From the IMG/VR virus record IMGVR_UViG_2721755711_000002: 64,000 bases of DNA; one strand, written 5' to 3'. Position 1 is the stretch's first letter. Every line of letters begins with the position of its first letter. The notes beneath the pieces are model-generated. The model saw nothing but the letters and a program-made list of their open reading frames with translations. It made no database searches and was not told the origin of the DNA. Shown here in pieces: positions 16,591 to 26,005 of the stretch. Both the position numbers and the translations under genes were made by a program. Source of the DNA: a virus (Duplodnaviria; Heunggongvirae; Uroviricota; Caudoviricetes).

Positions 16591-17226
16591 ATGTCTGTAT
16601 TAATTTCGGGTGTGCTGACGGATGGCGCGGGACTCCCCATGTCCGGATACCATATTATTCTGAAAGCCAGACAGAATACATCCGCAGTGGTCATGAGAAC
16701 GGTGGCTACAGTGATGACAGGTCCGGCAGGAGAATATGCTTTTGAAGCTCAGACCGGAAAATATGACGTTTATCTTCGGTCGTGTATTGAAAGGGAATAC
16801 TGTGTCGGTGATATTTCGGTTTACGACGACTCAAAGCCCGGCACGCTGAACGACTTTTTGACCGCTCTCGACGAAGGCGACCTCAAACCCGACGTGGTGA
16901 AACGCTTTGAGGAAATGGTGGCGCAGGCGCAGCAGGGTGCCGAAACTGCAACAGAAAGCGAACGACAGGCAGGGCAACATGCAGACGCTGCCGCCCGGGC
17001 AAAAGAAGATGTAAAAAAACTGGTGGAAGGTGTTCAGCAGAACGCCGACGCGGTTGCGGAGGGTAAACAACAGGCCGAAACTCTGGTCTCACAGGTTGAG
17101 GATACCGCCGCAGAGGTCAGGCAGGATGCTGAAGCCGCGAAAAAGGCCGCATCTGATGCAGAGCATGTCAGGGAGGATATTGACACTGCGTTATCTGCGA
17201 CACTGAAAACGGCGAATCGCCTGTAA
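16591..17226 (+). CDS. side tail fibre N-terminal domain protein (truncated Stf)
   Basis: MSVLISGVLTDGAG..ILKARQNTS..YDDSKPGTLNDFL recalls lambda Stf N-terminus; ORF stops at centre of inverted repeat. Confidence 0.7.
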   Translation: MSVLISGVLTDGAGLPMSGYHIILKARQNTSAVVMRTVATVMTGPAGEYAFEAQTGKYDVYLRSCIEREYCVGDISVYDDSKPGTLNDFLTALDEGDLKPDVVKRFEEMVAQAQQGAETATESERQAGQHADAAARAKEDVKKLVEGVQQNADAVAEGKQQAETLVSQVEDTAAEVRQDAEAAKKAASDAEHVREDIDTALSATLKTANRL

Positions 17227-17856
17227 ACGATTCGCCGTTTTCAGTGTCGCAGATAACGCAGTATCAATATCTGCTCTGGCCTGCTCTGCACCGGATGCGG
17301 CCTTTTTCGCGGCTTCAGCATCCTGCCTGACCTCCGCGGCGGTATCCTCAACCCGTGAGGCCAGATTTTCGGCCTGTTGTTTACCCTCCGCAACCGCGTC
17401 GGCGTTCTGCTGAACACCTTCCGCCAGTTTTTTTACCTCTTCTTTTGCCCGGGCGGCAGCGTCTGCATGTTGCCCTGCCTGTCGTTCACTTTCTGTTGCA
17501 GTTTCCGCGCTCTGCTGCGCCTGCGCCACCATTTCCTCAAAACGTTTCACCACGTCGGGCTTGAGGTCGCCTTCATCGGGGGCGGTCAGAAAATCATTCA
17601 GTGTGCCGGGCTTTGAGTCGTCGTATACAGCAATATCTCCAACACAGTACTCGTCGCGCCAGCCCTGCTTCAGATATACGCAGTATTTTCCGGTCTGCGC
17701 CTCAAAACAGTACTCGCCACAGTTTCCTGTCACCACGTCGGCAACTGTGCGCATCACCACCTCTGAGGTGTTTACCCGGGATTTCAGAATTATGTGGCAT
17801 CCGGACATGGGGATGCCTGCGCCATCAATCAGCGCACCTGATATCACTACAGACAT
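17191..17856 (-). CDS. side tail fibre N-terminal domain protein, inverted paralogue (truncated)
   Basis: 221 aa, near-identical to 16591-17226 product over C-terminal 130 aa; 3' ends overlap by 36 bp. Confidence 0.7.
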   Translation of the reverse strand: MSVVISGALIDGAGIPMSGCHIILKSRVNTSEVVMRTVADVVTGNCGEYCFEAQTGKYCVYLKQGWRDEYCVGDIAVYDDSKPGTLNDFLTAPDEGDLKPDVVKRFEEMVAQAQQSAETATESERQAGQHADAAARAKEEVKKLAEGVQQNADAVAEGKQQAENLASRVEDTAAEVRQDAEAAKKAASGAEQARADIDTALSATLKTANRLQAIRRFQCRR

Positions 17857-19924: not shown

Positions 19925-20547
19925 TTTTGAATCACCGTTGTTGCATAGGAATAAATAAAAGGGAGTTTTACATATTTCTGGTCAATGGCATCTTTCAGAA
20001 AATAGCCTATACCATCACCATATTCTGGTATCTGAATAGAAAAAACACTGTCCGATACAGTCACACTCACATCAAAAGTGTGCTGCAACGGCGGGTCTAT
20101 CCCGTTTTTTCCGTGAATGAACCGCGCCACACGTCGCTTTAACCAGTCAATGCAGAAGTGCGAGCCGTCAGCCTTATAAAAATTCCACGTCAATATTCGC
20201 TTGAAATAATCATCAGGAACATACGATGCCTGCCCCGGAACGTAATTCCGCATTGCCGCATACGGGATCGTATTGTATTCAATGGTATCGTATGCACCGC
20301 GTGCAATAGCCTCCTCGGAAACCTGTAGTAAAGGCCTTTCAACGCCATAAATCCCGAGTGCAATCCAGTCCAGCAATTGCCCGGTTATTGATTCTGATGT
20401 CCAGCATGGCAATGCCAGATTGTTGAGTGAATCGAGGTATTCCTGAGCAATTTCATTGTATGCATCAAAGAACGCAACAACATTCGGATCATCTCTGTAC
20501 TGCACAAATGGATAAGCAGGGAGAATTTTCTCAGTCAGATATTGCAT
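19921..20547 (-). CDS. tail/baseplate protein (gpI / Mu gp48 position)
   Basis: about 208 aa from MQYLTEKILPAYP; between J-like and fibre genes. Confidence 0.55.
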   Translation of the reverse strand: MQYLTEKILPAYPFVQYRDDPNVVAFFDAYNEIAQEYLDSLNNLALPCWTSESITGQLLDWIALGIYGVERPLLQVSEEAIARGAYDTIEYNTIPYAAMRNYVPGQASYVPDDYFKRILTWNFYKADGSHFCIDWLKRRVARFIHGKNGIDPPLQHTFDVSVTVSDSVFSIQIPEYGDGIGYFLKDAIDQKYVKLPFIYSYATTVIQK

Positions 20548-21757
20548 ACTTGTTGACCTGAACCTGTGATGCCACCGTTGAAAAATAGGAATAGGTATCG
20601 CCATAAACCAGGCTTGTGTCTTTCGCCGGAAGAACAATATGGCCGTTAATACCAATGCTCACACTGATTGTTGAGATCAACGTCGCATCAACCAGCAACC
20701 TGACGGAACTGGTAAAAATATCCTGGATACGCAGAAGATTTATCGGGTGTCCGACTTCAATTGAATTGATGTAATCAGCAACGTTTTGCTGCACAGCCAT
20801 AGCAATACCCGCCGGATCAACATAATCATCAGACACCGTGTTCCAGGTGATTAGCACCATGACGTTTTGTGATGACGGGATAACGAACGGTACCTGATAA
20901 ACGTCCGGCGAAACGGTTATTGAAACCGTGCGTTTTTCCACTGCCGCACCGGATGGATTGCTAACATCGTTGGTCAGTTTCGAAATGTCCGGTACAGATT
21001 TGTAAATCGCATAAGCCACATCATACGGATCACCGCCACCAACAACCGCAACCCATTTCCCCAGCGACGACTGCCGGAAAGAAATCAGGTTTTCGCGCAC
21101 ACCGCTTACTGATTTGAGCATCGCTTTAAAGCAATCCGGTGTTCCCTGCACACCAAACATGCCAGACTCCATGACTTCGGCGCGGTAAGATGCCCACGTC
21201 TGCTCCTCCTGACCTGGCATCCCTGCGGTAAGGTTCGTGCATTTTACAGGCTGGTCTTTGGGTACTGATGTAATAACCTGCGTCACGGTCCCTTCCGGTA
21301 CAGCCCATGAGCCTGACGTTGTGGCCACACAGTAAACTGGCTCAGTCTGCCCGCTTTCCGGTACCACAGTATCGCGGGAAACCGCATACTGGTAGTTACC
21401 GTCTCCAACCACAAATCCTTTAGGGATACCAAACCCCGGCAACGCTTCAAACACCACGTATACCGCCGTATTTGTACTTAATCCCTTCTGTGCTCCATAT
21501 ATGTTTCCGAGTTGCATCAGTAACGGAATATTCGCGCCGTATGGGCTTACGGAGTTAATAAGATCAACCCGCGCCTGGTCTATTAATGCCAGCGCCCCTA
21601 CTGCCGTGCTGGCAAGGTCTGTAATAAGTCCTGCCGGAAGGTTGGCTGTATATCCAGGTACTTTTTCAGCAACTCTGGTGATAAGATTTGCGAGCAAATC
21701 ATTGGGTGGCGTAGGCTGCGCACCCGCACTGGTCATAGTAATTGGTATTTCAGACAT
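20531..21757 (-). CDS. baseplate J-like protein (gp47 family)
   Basis: 408 aa; size and position typical of J/gp47 wedge protein. Confidence 0.65.
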   Translation of the reverse strand: MSEIPITMTSAGAQPTPPNDLLANLITRVAEKVPGYTANLPAGLITDLASTAVGALALIDQARVDLINSVSPYGANIPLLMQLGNIYGAQKGLSTNTAVYVVFEALPGFGIPKGFVVGDGNYQYAVSRDTVVPESGQTEPVYCVATTSGSWAVPEGTVTQVITSVPKDQPVKCTNLTAGMPGQEEQTWASYRAEVMESGMFGVQGTPDCFKAMLKSVSGVRENLISFRQSSLGKWVAVVGGGDPYDVAYAIYKSVPDISKLTNDVSNPSGAAVEKRTVSITVSPDVYQVPFVIPSSQNVMVLITWNTVSDDYVDPAGIAMAVQQNVADYINSIEVGHPINLLRIQDIFTSSVRLLVDATLISTISVSIGINGHIVLPAKDTSLVYGDTYSYFSTVASQVQVNKYAISD

Positions 21758-21771
21758 ATCTACCCCATAAA

Positions 21772-21797
21772 AAAACCGCCGAAGCGGTTTTAAGTTA
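21772..21797 (-). terminator. intrinsic terminator of moron gene
   Basis: minus strand: AACCGC-TTCG-GCGGTT then TTTTTTTATGG. Confidence 0.6.
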
Positions 21798-21799
21798 AC

Positions 21800-22546
21800 T
21801 TATTTTGCCTGTTTCATTTTTTCCACCCTCTCAAGCATTCTTTTTACATTTGATGGAGGATAGTTAAATTCATCGCCGTCTCCAAAAGAAATTTTTATAG
21901 GCTTCATTTTCATAACCAATTCTTTCAGAACCGCTTTACCAATTTCAGTTTTTGGTACTATAAAACCATTTCCATACAAGCATGATTTATAAGTTTTATA
22001 ATATTCACCATTAATCAAAATTGGTGGATACTCTAATGGCCCATCAATTTGCACTGAATTATCGCAAAATCCATTGCCTTTAGATTTTGAAGCAATAAAA
22101 ATAGCTATTGTCCCATCATCGCCATACATCAGGAATCTATTTTTACTAACACCTTCCAGTGGAGGTAATATTATCAGTGCACCATCAATATACCATTCAG
22201 CGTAATTCTTTGATTCATTGATTATGTTCTCATTAATTTCATTTAAAGATGAATATTCCCTGAATGCATTAGAATACCATTGTCGAACACATGATTCTGT
22301 TTTGCACTTCTCTCTTTCATTCCACAAGTCTGAAACAATTTTTCTAAAAGCTTTCTTATCAGCGCTCTCTAACTTTACTTTTTGATATAAAGAATTTAAT
22401 TTATCATCAAGTTCAGATAATTCACTGTTGCTGCAAATTAACTTTTCAGAATATGATTTAGCTTTCGAGCAATCAAAAGATACCGCATTCGCAGTTCCGA
22501 TTTGTAATAAAAAAGCAAACACTACAAATAATTTAAACTTAATCAT
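21800..22546 (-). CDS. secreted protein with DUF1311/LprI-like N-terminal domain (moron)
   Basis: signal peptide MIKFKLFVVFAFLLQIGTANA; FDCSKAKSYSEKLIC..LDDKLNSLYQ; strong AAGGAG RBS; AT-rich. Confidence 0.6.
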   Translation of the reverse strand: MIKFKLFVVFAFLLQIGTANAVSFDCSKAKSYSEKLICSNSELSELDDKLNSLYQKVKLESADKKAFRKIVSDLWNEREKCKTESCVRQWYSNAFREYSSLNEINENIINESKNYAEWYIDGALIILPPLEGVSKNRFLMYGDDGTIAIFIASKSKGNGFCDNSVQIDGPLEYPPILINGEYYKTYKSCLYGNGFIVPKTEIGKAVLKELVMKMKPIKISFGDGDEFNYPPSNVKRMLERVEKMKQAK

Positions 22547-22670
22547 CCGTAATCTCCTTAAAAACAGGAGATTAAATTTTACCCATTCTTAATGTCCGTT
22601 CAAGTTCATACTTTACAACCGCGCCCAGTTGAGTATGATTAAGCGCATGAGGCGTCGAAACCTCTTCTCA

Positions 22671-22746
22671 GTGCGGTCACAACCAACCCCGTTAGTGTTG
22701 GATTTTTTATGCCTGCTATTTAGTGATGGCACAATGTGCGGTCACA
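22671..22746 (+). promoter_or_regulatory. pair of 11-bp direct repeats GTGCGGTCACA upstream of ant (possible operator sites)
   Basis: copies at 22671-22681 and 22736-22746 flank a hairpin plus T tract. Confidence 0.35.
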
Positions 22747-22878
22747 TCCCCGAACAATGTCGGGAGGGCGACGAATACAACACCCGAAAGGGGAATAAGT
22801 CCGCGGCCTCACTGAGCCGTTTCGAACCTCCCGGCTCCACTCCGATAGTGGAAATTCGAAAAAATCAGTGAGGTCGTT

Positions 22879-23448
22879 ATGACAATACAATTAATCCCCG
22901 TTTTCAACGGAACTATCTCAAACGAAACCGCCCTACTCTGTAATGCTCGTGATCTGCACGCTTTTCTTGGTGTAGGTAAGGTTTTCGCAGCCTGGATTAC
23001 ATCCCGCATCGCAGAATACGGATTTACAGAAAATCAAGATTACATTTTGCTTTCCAAAACAGGAAAGCAATCGTTAGGAGGCAGAGGAGGACATAACCGC
23101 AAGGACTACCACCTCACCCTAGACACCGCCAAAGAACTGGCAATGGTCGAGCGCAACGAAAAAGGACGCCAGATCCGCCGATACTTCATCGAGTGCGAGA
23201 AGAAGCTGCGCGAAGATACCACCAGCACACAATCCCCTCTGAATGTTGACATCATCATGCGCGTCAGAAACGGCTCGGTTACCCACATTGAGCACCACAA
23301 ATCAGGCTCAGTTATCACCACAGAATGGGCAATTCACTTACTACGCAAAAGTGGATGGATTGTCATGCCACGCGATGAACTTCTTAACACGCCACTGGCC
23401 CAATTGATGCCCGAAAACTTGCCTCAAACCGGAACCTGCGTCCGGTAA
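22879..23448 (+). CDS. phage antirepressor (AntA/AntB N-terminal domain family)
   Basis: ARDLHAFLGV..AAWITSRIAEYGFTENQDYIL..RRYFIECEKKL pattern recalled from Ant family; opposite strand to tail operon. Confidence 0.65.
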   Translation: MTIQLIPVFNGTISNETALLCNARDLHAFLGVGKVFAAWITSRIAEYGFTENQDYILLSKTGKQSLGGRGGHNRKDYHLTLDTAKELAMVERNEKGRQIRRYFIECEKKLREDTTSTQSPLNVDIIMRVRNGSVTHIEHHKSGSVITTEWAIHLLRKSGWIVMPRDELLNTPLAQLMPENLPQTGTCVR

Positions 23449-23771
23449 CTGGTTCCGTTAAAAAACACAACATCGATGTTATAGGTGGGGTTCTCTGCCC
23501 CATCTACTTTTGAAATTGCCAGCGATGCAAAATACCCGGCATACTGTTGCTGAACCATGTTCACATAGTAGTCCGGGTAAATCTGCTGCACGATGCACTG
23601 CTGCGCTGGAATGCCGTAATTCGCGTAAAACGGCGACTCCCCCAACCCCAGCTTTAACGTCTGAATGAGCGTCGTCAGCCAGCCGTAGGAGAAATCACCG
23701 TTGGTGTCAGATTCTACTGCAACCCATTTTTTGTTGCCGTTCGCGTCGTTGACGCGGCCCCATGTTCTCAT
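23424..23771 (-). CDS. hypothetical protein at baseplate W/gp46 position
   Basis: about 116 aa from MRTWGRV; no family recognised. Confidence 0.4.
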   Translation of the reverse strand: MRTWGRVNDANGNKKWVAVESDTNGDFSYGWLTTLIQTLKLGLGESPFYANYGIPAQQCIVQQIYPDYYVNMVQQQYAGYFASLAISKVDGAENPTYNIDVVFFNGTSYRTQVPV

Positions 23772-23778
23772 CGCGCCC

Positions 23779-23877
23779 TCACCACCATCGGATCTGACCA
23801 ACAAAATAACCAGACGCAAGAATCAGAAAGACCAACCAAATAAGCAAAAACTTCCAGGTGGATAATTTTTCAGCCAT
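23779..23877 (-). CDS. small hydrophobic peptide (32 aa, ends RWW)
   Basis: MAEKLSTWKFLLIWLVFLILASGYFVGQIRWW with GGAGA RBS, 7 nt upstream of next ATG; not in ORF track (too short). Confidence 0.3.
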   Translation of the reverse strand: MAEKLSTWKFLLIWLVFLILASGYFVGQIRWW

Positions 23878-23943
23878 AACTCGAATCTCCCGAATCAGTT
23901 TGCTAAAATCAAACACGACTTCTCCTTGCCTTATTCAAGGTCA

Positions 23944-23979
23944 GAAACAAAAAGCCCCGACTGTTTGCCCAGTCGGGGC
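23944..23979 (-). terminator. intrinsic terminator after baseplate spike gene
   Basis: minus strand GCCCCGACTG-loop-CAGTCGGGGC followed by TTTTTGTTT. Confidence 0.6.
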
Positions 23980-24018
23980 TTTCGCTTTATGGATAGAATT
24001 TAAAGTGAAATTAACCGG

Positions 24019-24732
24019 TTAACCCGGATTTGGTTGCTTCGACGTGATCGTGCTGCCGCCGCTTTGAACGCCAGTCACATCGTGGCTGTGGCCGCTGGCG
24101 CTCACGCCGTTGATAACTGCATCTTTCTCGACCTTAAGAGGGCCAATCAGCGAAGCGGTTGTATCCTTCATCTGGGCTTTGTCCTGGACGATCGGTCCGT
24201 TGAGGTGAATTTTCCCGTTCAGGAAAATATCTTCGGCCTCAAGGTAAACAGCTTTCGACTTTTGCCTGATTTCTTCCGGAGCCACCGTTACCGAGCTACT
24301 GCCGTCCTCTGTTTTGAGGATCGCGCCATCCGGACCGTACAAAACGATTTTTTGCGGATCTTCGTCGGACCAGTCCTTGTTTGCCAGTGGCACGAAAAAC
24401 AGGGGAGTGAGCGACATCGAGTAAGAGAGCGTCGCCATACCAGTTCCCAACCCGGACACACCGCGCAGGGATACATCAGCGGCAATTGTTACTCCTCGAT
24501 CGCCCGGCTGTATCGGGTAACGGATATACGGGAATGTGGCGACAGGGATTGTTATCTGCGGAAAGTTGATCCCCTCGGGGAGCATATCAAACTGAACTGT
24601 CACTATCTGCCCGCTGACATCGACAACATGGCAGGGCAATTCACGGCCTTTAAGCTCGGCTTGCTGGTTACCAGAACTGGTCATCATCTCCGACAGCGTT
24701 CGGAGAAACGGTATTTTTTGAGCGTTTGACAT
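24019..24732 (-). CDS. baseplate spike protein (V / Mu gp45-like)
   Basis: 237 aa, position after hub gene; Gly/Ser-rich C-terminus. Confidence 0.55.
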   Translation of the reverse strand: MSNAQKIPFLRTLSEMMTSSGNQQAELKGRELPCHVVDVSGQIVTVQFDMLPEGINFPQITIPVATFPYIRYPIQPGDRGVTIAADVSLRGVSGLGTGMATLSYSMSLTPLFFVPLANKDWSDEDPQKIVLYGPDGAILKTEDGSSSVTVAPEEIRQKSKAVYLEAEDIFLNGKIHLNGPIVQDKAQMKDTTASLIGPLKVEKDAVINGVSASGHSHDVTGVQSGGSTITSKQPNPG

Positions 24733-25739
24733 TACACCCTCGCCCAGTTCTCAGCATATGCCTCGAATACCGTCACCCAGGCATCGCCATCGGCTGTCAG
24801 ATACGAACCAATGTGTCTGACCGATTTCACAAGAAATTTCCCGGTAAACGTGGTCGAGTTTTTGGAGATAACGCCAGGAGCCATTGTATTAGCCATCACA
24901 ATCGACGCGGCGCCCGAATAAAGCCCCTCCGGCAAATTAACCACATCACCACATCTGATATCGCCCCTCATCGGGCATTTGAAGCTGACGGTAAACGGCG
25001 CTACCCATGTCGGCTGCCCGACCAGTTCATGGGCATGAATTGTTTTTGGCTCACCCCACTTTGCCGATGCGTTATCGTAGATTCGTATTCTGTCGGAAAG
25101 AATACTGATGGCGATTCCGCTATACCTTTCATTACGCATCATCGCAATAGAGGCGTTTTTTACGACCATTGCCAGAGAACCAATCTCTGTATATTTACCC
25201 GTCCACGGCTCTGGCAAAACTAGGTTGTCGCTGACTGTGCAATCAATCAATTTATTGGGATATGCTTTTTGCAAAGCGCGGACTAAAACATCGCCAACCC
25301 TTTCGCCTGCTTCCCCCTGCCCCTCAATTGAAAAAGGTTTACCGTCATCGGTTTTGCGTATGCTTGGATTTATTACCAGGTTTAAAGTCTGGTTCGTGCC
25401 GATCCAGTTGGCATAGGCCAGATAAATTTCACCATAGATTACCTCCCCCTGTTGATCCTTATTTGCCAGTGGTAACCCCTGAACAAAGCCTGCTTTCATA
25501 CGGACCAGACAACCCTGCAAGCTTACGCTTTGCTTCAGCATGTCAATTGGTAATCCATAGATCGTCAGCATCGTGCCCGAACAGACTACATCCAGGCCGG
25601 TTACTTCAAAGTCAAATTCAACATGCAACCCACATCCTGGTGTTTCACTGGTATCAAAAGGTCCAATGGGTTTTCCATTGCTATCCACTGGCGGCTTGCC
25701 TGTTTTAGGATTAATAATTTCCAGTCGGTAATAACGCAT
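24732..25739 (-). CDS. baseplate hub protein (D / Mu gp44-like)
   Basis: 335 aa; position between DNA-circulation-like genes and spike. Confidence 0.55.
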   Translation of the reverse strand: MRYYRLEIINPKTGKPPVDSNGKPIGPFDTSETPGCGLHVEFDFEVTGLDVVCSGTMLTIYGLPIDMLKQSVSLQGCLVRMKAGFVQGLPLANKDQQGEVIYGEIYLAYANWIGTNQTLNLVINPSIRKTDDGKPFSIEGQGEAGERVGDVLVRALQKAYPNKLIDCTVSDNLVLPEPWTGKYTEIGSLAMVVKNASIAMMRNERYSGIAISILSDRIRIYDNASAKWGEPKTIHAHELVGQPTWVAPFTVSFKCPMRGDIRCGDVVNLPEGLYSGAASIVMANTMAPGVISKNSTTFTGKFLVKSVRHIGSYLTADGDAWVTVFEAYAENWARV

Positions 25740-26005
25740 TACGAAACCTCAAACTGATTCGTACTTTCGCGAAAAACAAGTTTCCCCGGTGAGCAAGGCA
25801 GCGCCAGATTGATGTCGTAACTGTCAGGTGACGCGATCAACGGCATGTACACAATCACGTCGCCAGAACTGTCTTTCAGTTCCAGGTAGTAACGATTTGC
25901 ATACAGATTAAACGGAACGCGGGCGAATGTTTCATATTCTCCAATTCTGGCCGTGAACTGAAACGGGCCTCGCCCGTCAGGTTTAAAAGGAATTAACGTT
26001 GTCAT
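25739..26005 (-). CDS. hypothetical tail protein
   Basis: 88-aa ORF tightly packed in tail operon. Confidence 0.4.
   Translation of the reverse strand: MTTLIPFKPDGRGPFQFTARIGEYETFARVPFNLYANRYYLELKDSSGDVIVYMPLIASPDSYDINLALPCSPGKLVFRESTNQFEVS

Follow-up and report, generated by a model that had tools for sequence, protein, structure and literature searches.

Extra genes situated between conserved late genes, so-called morons, are known from phages of the HK97/lambda type (e.g., HK97 gp15 and lambda lom and bor), and morons within tail operons are a known phenomenon. In phage P22, the immI region (sieA-mnt-arc-ant with sar) lies within the late operon, ahead of the tailspike gene, and phage T4 possesses in Spackle a periplasmic inhibitor of its tail lysozyme gp5 that acts in superinfection exclusion. 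The moron concept was reportedly set out by Juhala et al. 2000 and Cumby et al. 2012. The sar product of P22 is an antisense RNA, and in phages P1 and P7 the loops of the c4 RNA pair with the ribosome-binding region of the ant operon, a specificity that underlies heteroimmunity (PMC12197685). The RNA family sRNA-Xcc1 (Rfam RF02221) was described from a Xanthomonas integron as a virulence-linked, trans-acting small RNA (sRNA) (PMC2996969). Here, these systems are compared with positions 21772 to 23979 of a stretch of 64,000 nucleotides from a tailed virus (Caudoviricetes; IMG/VR record IMGVR_UViG_2721755711_000002), the whole of which is called the window in the following. Between the spike gene and the J-like gene of a contractile-tail operon, this region contains genes for a secreted LprI-like protein, an AntA-family antirepressor (ant), a 115-aa protein and a small membrane peptide, and an sRNA-Xcc1 element, located directly upstream of ant, carries a loop complementary to the Shine-Dalgarno (SD) sequence of that gene.

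The original prediction for this region, made from the sequence alone, was that of a single moron island inside a Mu-like baseplate operon. The features it listed are present at the positions it gave, whereas the sRNA-Xcc1 element, which lies within the same coordinates, was absent from it.

The antirepressor gene and its RNA leader

The ant gene (22879-23448, plus strand) was correctly predicted as an antirepressor: residues 22-93 of its product match the Pfam domain AntA (PF08346) with 90.5 bits against a gathering score of 27, and PHROG anti-repressor families are matched down to E = 1e-66. From its family, Ant would be expected to inactivate the phage repressor. The gene is oriented antisense to the tail operon, and its last 25 nt overlap those of the converging 115-aa gene. 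At a distance of 35 nt before its ATG lies a full-length match to sRNA-Xcc1 (22759-22843, plus strand; model positions 1-87; 72.4 bits against a gathering score of 53). The loop of hairpin 2 of this RNA, an anti-SD sequence (22804-22815, plus strand), is complementary to the SD region of ant (22865-22876, plus strand; TCAGTGAGGTCG versus CGGCCTCACTGA), the two arms forming an inverted repeat (I11) with 11 of 12 positions complementary. The minimum-free-energy fold of the leader pairs precisely these loop and SD arms (-51.2 kcal/mol, z = -4.2).

Among the related loci, sRNA-Xcc1 precedes every ant gene at the same place, and it also precedes the Bro-N gene that is situated in the place of ant in L016 and L017. 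It is gone where ant is absent (L014) or truncated at its 5' end (phage pPE4). Since ant is kept in the Escherichia coli relatives, its original assignment to the swappable cargo is not supported. The loop of hairpin 2 is hypervariable, and in seven versions its complement lies just 5' of, or overlaps, the GAGG of the downstream gene. Loop and SD-side sequences are CCTCACTGA and TCAGTGAGG in the window, TCTTTTGG and CCAAAAGA in L005, TCTTTTTGC and GCAAAAAGA in L010, TGTTTGT and ACAAACA in L007, TCGTGAA and TTCACGA in L008, CTATCTG and CAGATAG in L016, and CTTGTA and TACAAG in L002.

When viral contigs were scanned with the conserved RNA core as query, at least 120 loci were obtained. Analysed were the 118 unique RNA-plus-downstream sequences among the matches listed, with at least 72 distinct loops, and the following values refer to these listed matches. 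Pairing was scored as a perfect Watson-Crick complement to the loop plus one flanking base on each side, within the cognate 113-nt downstream region. A complement of at least 7 nt is found in 58% of the cognate but only 3.1% of the non-cognate pairings, and one of at least 6 nt in 78% against 12.6%; the mean duplex energy amounts to -8.8 kcal/mol for cognate and -5.6 kcal/mol for non-cognate pairings. In 75 of 96 cases, a distance of 7-11 nt (mode 9) separates the end of the target from the start codon of the first open reading frame (ORF) of at least 50 aa, which is the position of a Shine-Dalgarno sequence. Concerning these downstream ORFs, 81 of the 96 belong to one BLAST-linked set, and ten encode proteins of around 85 aa without assignment; representatives carry AntA, Bro-N (also with P22_AR_C), ORF6N, P22_AR_N, KilA-N and Phage_pRha, i.e., at least six antirepressor domain types. 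RF02221 scores above its gathering score in 13 of 15 of the listed viral loci that were checked. The same arrangement is found before the antirepressor gene of the Shiga toxin (Stx) phage TL-2011c, with a loop/SD match of 8 bp that includes one G-U pair.

Judged by this complementarity, pairing of the sRNA-Xcc1 loop with the SD sequence is likely to repress ant. Ant would then be silenced post-transcriptionally, the RNA loop covering the ant SD sequence and blocking ribosome binding, be it in cis or as a processed antisense RNA, and the loop would constitute a phage-specific determinant of specificity, as with the c4 RNA of P1/P7.

The c4 RNA is released from its precursor by RNase P and represses translation. 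With the c4-icd/ant system of P1/P7 (RF01695), the locus shares a structured RNA of around 80 nt encoded in one transcription unit with its target and ahead of it, loops complementary to the downstream ribosome-binding site, co-variation of loop and target between phages, which is the logic of heteroimmunity, and a closing stem followed by an NCCA/CCA-like tail, also seen in sRNA-Xcc1. Despite this general similarity, there are clear differences: the covariance model is another one, a single loop and a single target take the place of a'/b' with a1b1/a2b2, and the target is the SD sequence of ant itself and not that of icd. No RF01695 match at E<=1 exists in 21500-24200, whereas the C4 model does find a C4 RNA beside the sRNA-Xcc1 copy of L020, such that both RNAs can occur in tandem. 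In this locus (L020, 662-1794, minus strand), c4-a1b1, isrK/C4, sRNA-Xcc1 and isrJ are situated in series around one antirepressor-type gene, the antisense-RNA modules being stacked in one leader.

The content of the region also resembles an 'immunity-I'-type module. As in P22 immI, an antirepressor gene and exclusion-type membrane or periplasmic genes lie amid virion genes, and an antisense RNA covers the translation initiation region of ant, which for the window is predicted from sequence. In contrast to P22, there are no Mnt and Arc repressors, the RNA lies upstream on the same strand instead of being a true antisense transcript, and Ant is of the AntA type and oriented against the late operon.

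Compared to sRNA-Xcc1 as published, the match is full-length and above the gathering score, whereas the RNA of the window and of the viral contigs constitutes an antirepressor leader with a loop matched to the SD sequence. That sRNA-Xcc1 can precede symE has been mentioned in a preprint on Xanthomonas integrons, and that it can precede an ORF6N gene in a paper on an APSE phage, in both cases without a mechanism. No link of sRNA-Xcc1 to antirepressor ribosome-binding sites was found in the literature searched, the coverage of which was incomplete, such that priority is not claimed; the RNA-antirepressor link is apparently new. Should the loop-SD pairing be functional, it would provide a common Rfam family with a definite mode of action and a definite target. 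It would also add to the control of antirepressors in many prophages, those of Stx phages among them, a layer of RNA-based immunity whose specificity is readable, and the published trans-target predictions for sRNA-Xcc1 would have to be re-examined.

Some further observations concern the surroundings of the RNA. TL-2011c possesses a second sRNA-Xcc1 copy (L161, 1040-1129, plus strand) before a 94-aa hypothetical gene upstream of the antirepressor gene. In the window, direct repeats GTGCGGTCACA(A/T)CC, 65 nt apart, are situated at 22671-22684 and 22736-22749 (plus strand) between the putative ant promoter and the RNA; they may represent an operator or a processing signal, and their second copy is also found in TL-2011c (L161, around 1557-1570). 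LexA control of ant was considered and dropped, because no LexA site (CTGT-N8-ACAG) exists near the gene; the window-wide count of such sites is not above chance. The microRNA-size 24B_1 of Stx phages was ruled out as a fragment of sRNA-Xcc1, since it belongs to another locus: it maps downstream of lom, and its proposed target d_ant lies downstream of R.

Core genes and cargo slots at the baseplate junctions

The tail genes on the minus strand are ordered as SLT protein, 222-aa protein, 88-aa protein, hub, spike, the region under study, J, 208-aa protein and fibres. Upstream of the region are the hub gene (24732-25739, minus strand; PHROG baseplate hub) and the V-like spike gene (24019-24732, minus strand), which has a weak match to TIGR01644 phage_P2_V (19.5 bits) and a GpV Apex motif and is named a baseplate protein in relatives. 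The downstream flank is formed by the J-like baseplate gene (20531-21757, minus strand; PF04865, Baseplate_J, 33.1 bits; PHROG 6, baseplate wedge subunit).

In a BLAST comparison of the window with 12 related loci, homology stops at 21758, just one base beyond the start of J, and restarts at 22560-22648; further breakpoints are located at 23434-23448 and at 23771 and 23889-23924. From the sharpness of the first two, 21759-22647 is taken as an exchangeable cassette, such that the boundaries sought by synteny could be drawn for this part, whereas the postulated continuous insert dissolves: read from these alignments, the interruption is not a single island but a set of three independent junction slots (A, B and C) around a core gene of 115 aa.

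Slot A, between J and ant, corresponds to the AT-rich cassette of 889 bp (21759-22647, minus strand) delimited by the breakpoints and by base composition, its G+C content being around 0.32 (0.31-0.33 in the gene) compared to around 0.50 in the flanks. Across 13 E. coli-type loci, at least seven different gene sets occupy this slot, which bears out the claim of exchangeable cargo inside the baseplate gene string. In ETEC4090, it harbours a 356-aa protein with the same N-domain as the window protein and another C-domain; elsewhere it contains rac62 and rac61, or other single genes or pairs. Nearly all slot-A genes of the relatives are low in G+C (0.27-0.37) and encode a signal peptide or transmembrane (TM) segments, on either strand. 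Among 5426 complete E. coli genomes, the cassette of the window is found in 11 (with 96.8-99.9% identity across them) and the J gene in 88.

Slot B, between the stop codons of ant and of the 115-aa gene, is empty in the window, whereas it contains a YafO toxin gene with a partner in E. coli TUM9812 and in L016. Such YafO-family pairs, with the partner upstream, recur as cargo of the baseplate junctions between the 115-aa gene and ant or J, namely in TUM9812 (L006, 2979-3969), in the metagenomic relative L016 (1140-2098) and in Serratia oryzae (L144, 6662-7776).

Slot C extends from the start of the 115-aa gene (23771) to around 23924 and harbours in the window one single-pass membrane peptide (23779-23916, minus strand). 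The hydrophobic peptide had been predicted with 32 aa; its existence is corroborated, its length is 45 aa, counted from a GTG start at 23916 behind AAGGAGA. PHROG 6632 (45 residues) matches it end to end (residues 1-45, E = 2e-28), and peptide paralogues of the relatives conserve residues before the internal Met (ATG 23874). Its Kyte-Doolittle mean over 19 residues reaches 2.16 over WKFLLIWLVFLILASGYFVG. In relatives, slot C has a Rha gene added or contains 1-4 other small single-TM peptides. These arrays, with peptides of 45-68 aa, are found in L007 (3560-3960), L010 (3700-4470), L012 and L013, and include duplicated paralogues of the 45-aa peptide.

The core gene (348 nt; ATG at 23771 to stop at 23424, minus strand) is always present: it is found between spike and J in all E. 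coli relatives and in all 22 loci of a distant set covering around 20 genera (Yersinia, Pantoea, Serratia, Arsenophonus, Caballeronia, Rhodanobacter, a metagenome-assembled genome of Desulfobulbia, and others). What had been listed as a 116-aa protein of unclear identity among the cargo is indeed an ORF, but one of 115 aa that belongs to the core. Its family (PHROG 7986, unannotated) comprises 700 homologous clusters with a constant length of 114-116 aa. No Pfam or NCBIfam match at E<=0.1 was obtained, including GPW_gp25 (PF04965), and a search of the family profile against PDB sequences found nothing. An AlphaFold2 (AF2) model built on a 42-sequence alignment (predicted local distance difference test score, pLDDT, 76) exhibits a beta-beta-alpha...alpha-beta-beta-beta topology. 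In a Foldseek search against BFVD, the named matches among the best 50 are mostly GpW/gp25/IraD, 'baseplate wedge', 'phage baseplate assembly protein W', 'Mu-like prophage protein gp46', DUF2634 and 'sheath initiation protein', each fold match being weak, including those to 2ia7 and IraD. Because these weak matches agree with the size of the protein, its universal presence and its place between V and J, the modelled protein is probably a wedge (sheath-initiator) protein like T4 gp25, P2 gpW and Mu gp46; with these it shares size, place, universal presence and a predicted, weakly matching alpha/beta fold, whereas it differs in the missing GPW_gp25 match and in belonging to a family without annotation. 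A probable gp25/W-like identity could thereby be given to an unannotated core family of 700 clusters.

By tblastn, homologues of hub, V, the 115-aa gene, J and I were placed in the 22 distant loci, and in all 22 they are colinear on a single strand. The gap between the 115-aa gene and J (W-J) does not exceed 85 nt in 13 of 21 distant relatives, whereas it measures 1666 nt in the window. In the other 8 of 21, inserts of 257-1554 nt are present, and L014 and L016 also carry inserts. In Erwinia, Pantoea, Serratia and Caballeronia, the products of the distant inserts are lipoproteins or secreted proteins; other inserts encode a YafO pair or a small TM peptide, and the inserts often are lower in G+C. 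Since W and J abut in 13 and are separated by inserts in 8 of these relatives, V-115aa-J is taken as the ground state; on this comparative basis, the ancestral order is hub-spike(V)-115aa-J-I with abutting genes, and the junctions, above all W-J, constitute a recurrent insertion site. To call cargo in a baseplate operon unusual was thus an overstatement.

That the region is an accessory-gene hotspot of the late (tail) operon, with the 115-aa gene as part of the core, is very well supported. The slot A cassette exhibits what is expected of a moron, i.e., insertion between genes that are adjacent in relatives, deviant base composition, and its own ribosome-binding site and terminator; furthermore, its product is a predicted envelope protein, and Q antitermination would carry transcription through the late operon. 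In contrast to the HK97/lambda type, where the tail or side-tail-fibre region of a siphovirus is the site, the baseplate genes of a contractile tail are interrupted here, at W-J and V-W; moreover, three slots lie side by side, and promoter and prophage expression are predicted only. The hotspot is a fresh instance of a well-known phenomenon with a specific recurrent site, and the island itself is of the ordinary phage moron type; what a specialist might not expect here is solely the pairing of RNA and ant. For annotation, it is relevant that the 'island' is a set of junction slots. As a cargo site of one contractile-tail lineage in many Proteobacteria, filled mostly with genes for exported proteins, W-J is worth searching for factors of exclusion or lysogenic conversion.

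The exported protein and competing explanations

The LprI-like gene of slot A (22546-21800, minus strand) encodes 248 aa with a textbook signal peptide (MIKFKLFVVFAFLLQIGTANA/VS), a helical DUF1311/LprI-like domain with four cysteines (around 22-105) and a rare C-domain with two cysteines (around 114-247). As had been stated, it is an AT-rich signal-peptide gene with its own ribosome-binding site (AAGGAG) and its own terminator (t2, see below). The N-terminal part (1-105) has 3732 homologues at E<=1e-3 in a representative library, fused to many different C-terminal domains, and AF2 predicts it as a helical bundle with pLDDT >90. In an alignment of 57 sequences, C26, C38 and C81 are invariant or nearly so; C86 was recognized by inspection of the translation. 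The sequence thus combines export with two cysteine pairs, which in the Salmonella protein ScwA form disulfides. The C-domain, with two invariant cysteines, has only a few matches in the representative library and is found in 8 clusters of 5.8 billion. Stand-alone proteins of 158 aa consisting of a signal peptide and this C-domain fill the same W-J slot in L014 and L016. The SD sequence of the LprI-like gene is enclosed in a hairpin of 9 bp (22574-22550, minus strand; AAUCUCCU...AGGAGAUU; -11.3 kcal/mol, z = -3.5), which may be a translational control element.

From its signal peptide, the protein is very probably periplasmic. For the LprI of Mycobacterium tuberculosis, inhibition of lysozyme is reported by a citing paper; in Pantoea, proteins with an LprI domain are candidate orphan immunity proteins of type VI secretion systems (T6SS) against lysozyme-like effectors (PMC9796082), and the periplasmic ScwA of Salmonella, with two disulfides, controls the levels of MltD (PMC7933661). 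A role as periplasmic inhibitor, i.e., as a superinfection-exclusion or protection factor, is possible, though it falls short of probable. The exported protein would act in the periplasm of the lysogen and there bind or inhibit enzymes that cleave the cell wall from outside, candidate targets being incoming tails with an SLT tape-measure protein or muramidases of the T6SS or lysozyme type. The window itself codes for a 657-aa protein in tape-measure position that bears an SLT domain at residues around 481-578, and for two holins and an M15 peptidase endolysin; since the phage lyses with the latter, the inhibitor model would entail no self-inhibition. With T4 Spackle, the protein would share that it is small, phage-encoded, Sec-exported and a proposed neutraliser of the wall-cutting enzyme of an incoming tail, whereas sequence or structural relationship is lacking, the analogy being purely inferential. 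With other LprI/DUF1311 proteins it shares export, the helical domain with four conserved cysteines and a horizontally acquired gene of low G+C content; it differs in its score below the Pfam threshold, in its fusion to a rare C-domain without known fold, and in being phage-borne in a fixed tail-operon slot, and ScwA shows that the domain alone does not imply lysozyme inhibition. A divergent protein with signal peptide, DUF1311 and C-domain, P0230 (L162, 6001-6723), is encoded immediately downstream of the DNA-circulation gene; the tail cluster concerned is genuinely Mu-like and includes an SLT tape-measure protein, and the secreted family seems to be tied to contractile-tail modules with SLT.

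Taken as a whole, a hotspot with an RNA-controlled ant and exported cargo is the likely reading of the region. Tentatively, it can be extended: sRNA-Xcc1, at present annotated genome-wide as a trans-acting 'virulence' sRNA, would instead be a widespread c4-like same-strand antisense module before phage antirepressors of at least six domain types (and before the SymE toxin in integrons), its loop occluding the cognate SD sequence as a prophage bar-code, and the exported DUF1311-plus-C-domain protein would be a Spackle-like inhibitor of an SLT tail enzyme. This extended reading is quite possible but somewhat less than probable; if it is true, the loop/SD pair is a bar-code for which prophages silence each other's antirepressors.

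Several points weigh against these readings. Concerning the RNA, cis and trans action of the loop-SD pairing are not separable by sequence, and sRNA-Xcc1 is treated in the literature as a trans-acting sRNA of Xanthomonas/Xylella (PMC2996969, PMC12189769). Concerning the exported protein, the predicted DUF1311/LprI-like domain stands as a helical domain with four cysteines, but Pfam LprI (PF07007) is matched with only 18.2 bits against a gathering score of 22 (E = 0.0033, profile positions 1-47 of 106). PF07007 is reached at E<=1e-3 in only 5 of 57 aligned homologues, which by sequence places the N-domain as a marginal branch of DUF1311/LprI; one distant homologue match carries PF07007. The AF2 model of the C-domain has a pLDDT <50, and profile searches against PDB sequences and Pfam gave it no credible relative, such that the proposed target of the protein is a guess; in a Foldseek search of the LprI-like protein against PDB, nothing fell below E = 0.98. 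None of the four proteins (LprI-like, 115-aa, peptide and Ant) matched a known anti-phage defence system in PADLOC, and NCBIfam assigned no cargo family, the sole match being A1S_1983 with 24.5 bits against a cutoff of 150. ScwA gives no lysozyme protection or inhibition (PMC7933661). Finally, the consensus scan for promoters and terminators is overall not above shuffled expectation, with only t1 (see below) clearly above it.

Among the competing explanations, the one that survives best is that the LprI-like protein is a lysogenic-conversion factor of benefit to the host and not a means of phage exclusion, be it as orphan immunity against lysozyme-like T6SS effectors, as protection from animal lysozyme or as a modulator of host peptidoglycan hydrolases like ScwA. 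The occurrence of LprI-domain proteins beside lysozyme-like T6SS effectors and as orphan immunity genes, the control of MltD by ScwA, the other slot-A alleles, which are also small, secreted and low in G+C, and the livestock and gut origin of the strains all point in this direction. However, the C-domain family hardly occurs outside the W-J slot of phage tail clusters, which indicates a phage-related target, and no T6SS context was seen in the loci; neither point is decisive. A host-benefit immunity role is rather unlikely by itself, and nearly as likely as the exclusion role.

For the RNA, the alternative is that it acts in trans on host mRNAs, as proposed for Xanthomonas/Xylella, with its place before ant being incidental. 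It is seen as a discrete RNA of around 88-100 nt in Xanthomonas, and published target predictions are host or plant genes. This is nevertheless improbable, given that the loop co-varies with the adjacent SD sequence through at least 72 variants (with the excess of cognate complements of at least 7 nt given above), that the target sits at the SD position, and that the RNA is tied to at least six antirepressor domain types and lost where ant is absent or 5'-truncated; moreover, a processed RNA acting in trans on the ant mRNA is still compatible with repression of ant by loop-SD pairing.

That the island is decaying junk, i.e., recombination remnants in a defective prophage, is very improbable. 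The integrase of the closest reference is split by IS903B, insertion sequence (IS) elements occur in the region in some relatives, and ant is truncated at the 5' end in pPE4 and at the 3' end in ETEC4090; but every ORF is intact in the window, the cassette is near-identical in its 11 genomes, the structural module is complete, co-variation of RNA and SD as well as the conserved cysteines indicate purifying selection, and Rac-SA53 and pPE4 were deposited as phage genomes. The weakest alternative, that every gene between spike and J is a conserved baseplate component with a structural or assembly role, is barely credible: by synteny it holds for the 115-aa gene only, and co-orientation of the peptide and LprI-like genes with the operon and recurrence of C-domain homologues at the same position in relatives are outweighed by the restriction of the LprI cassette to 11 of 88 E. 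coli genomes with the J gene, its replacement by unrelated genes, often on the opposite strand, its G+C content of 32% against 50%, a Sec signal peptide leading the protein out of the cytoplasm, where tails assemble, the abutting W and J of 13 of 21 distant relatives, and the regulator family of Ant.

Transcription signals and prophage setting

The spike gene is followed by the predicted intrinsic terminator, t1, whose G+C-rich hairpin (23983-23950, minus strand; T-run to 23941) has a 14-bp stem with 8 G-C pairs and is clearly more stable than shuffled sequences (-29.3 kcal/mol, z = -6.8). It belongs to a block conserved among the E. coli relatives (23924-25800) and is missing where V and the 115-aa gene abut (L014). 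Rfam matches to 'sar' (24 bits) and SSRC10 at this place stay below their gathering scores and were judged to be the terminator hairpin. The terminator of the cassette, t2 (21791-21769, minus strand), is situated 12 nt before the J start and consists of AAAACCGC-TTCG-GCGGTTTTTTT, the letters as read being AAAACCGC TTCG GCGGTTTT TTT; its stability is lower (-10.3 kcal/mol, z = -1.85), and the consensus scan missed it. A putative minus-strand promoter toward the LprI-like gene (22603-22576) reads TTGAAC/16/TAAAAT (9 of 12 positions of a sigma-70-like consensus), and a putative plus-strand promoter toward ant (22612-22639) TTTACA/16/TATGAT (10 of 12).

During lytic growth, Q-modified RNA polymerase would pass t1 and t2, because both lie inside the Q-dependent late operon, and by this read-through W and J would be made despite the inserts, with late transcription running antisense across ant. 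Read-through would be needed anyway, since phage Rac-SA53 has three plus-strand genes between W and J; its J start lies only 22 nt from that of the divergent rac62. The two terminators would shield the cargo in the lysogen, where it would use its own weak promoters. Transcripts of ant, on the plus strand, could also be ended by t1.

The 5.3 kb around the region are 99.9% identical to E. coli F2_407_2_2 (NZ_CP074756.1), and Escherichia phage Rac-SA53 and 'Actinobacillus' phage vB_Apl-pPE4 are piecewise 92-97% identical to the same 5.3 kb. The annotation of NZ_CP074756.1 contains a full-length Rac-family prophage flanked by ompN/uspF and ttcA, with recET, kilR, ydaS/T, replication, lysis, terminase, head and contractile-tail genes and with an integrase interrupted by IS903B. 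In the window, the Q antiterminator (Phage_antiter_Q, PF06323, 298 bits) is located at 50226-50921 on the minus strand. The designation 'Mu-like' thus fits the gene order of the tail, whereas the phage is a lambdoid Rac-family prophage with contractile tail and Q antiterminator. Its Q/nin module (48619-52336), with PF06323 Q, RusA, DUF968 and a DNA methylase, is unlike the counterpart in NZ_CP074756.1 with DUF1133/DUF1364/DUF1367, which is a mosaic exchange of the late-regulation module between otherwise near-identical prophages.

Downstream of the fibre genes, at 16591-17856, two near-mirror ORFs of 211 aa (plus strand) and 221 aa (minus strand) face each other and share a similar tail-fibre C-terminal sequence, which suggests an invertible or duplicated host-range segment. 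A gene in portal position (L001, 28755-29301; L004, 265-1701) bears the RefSeq name 'anti-CBASS protein Acb1 family protein', which may be a mis-transferred name or reflect a fused domain. In the early region of the prophage, a match to the Rfam sok antitoxin RNA (54159-54333, minus strand; 113.5 bits) marks a hok/sok type I toxin-antitoxin locus.

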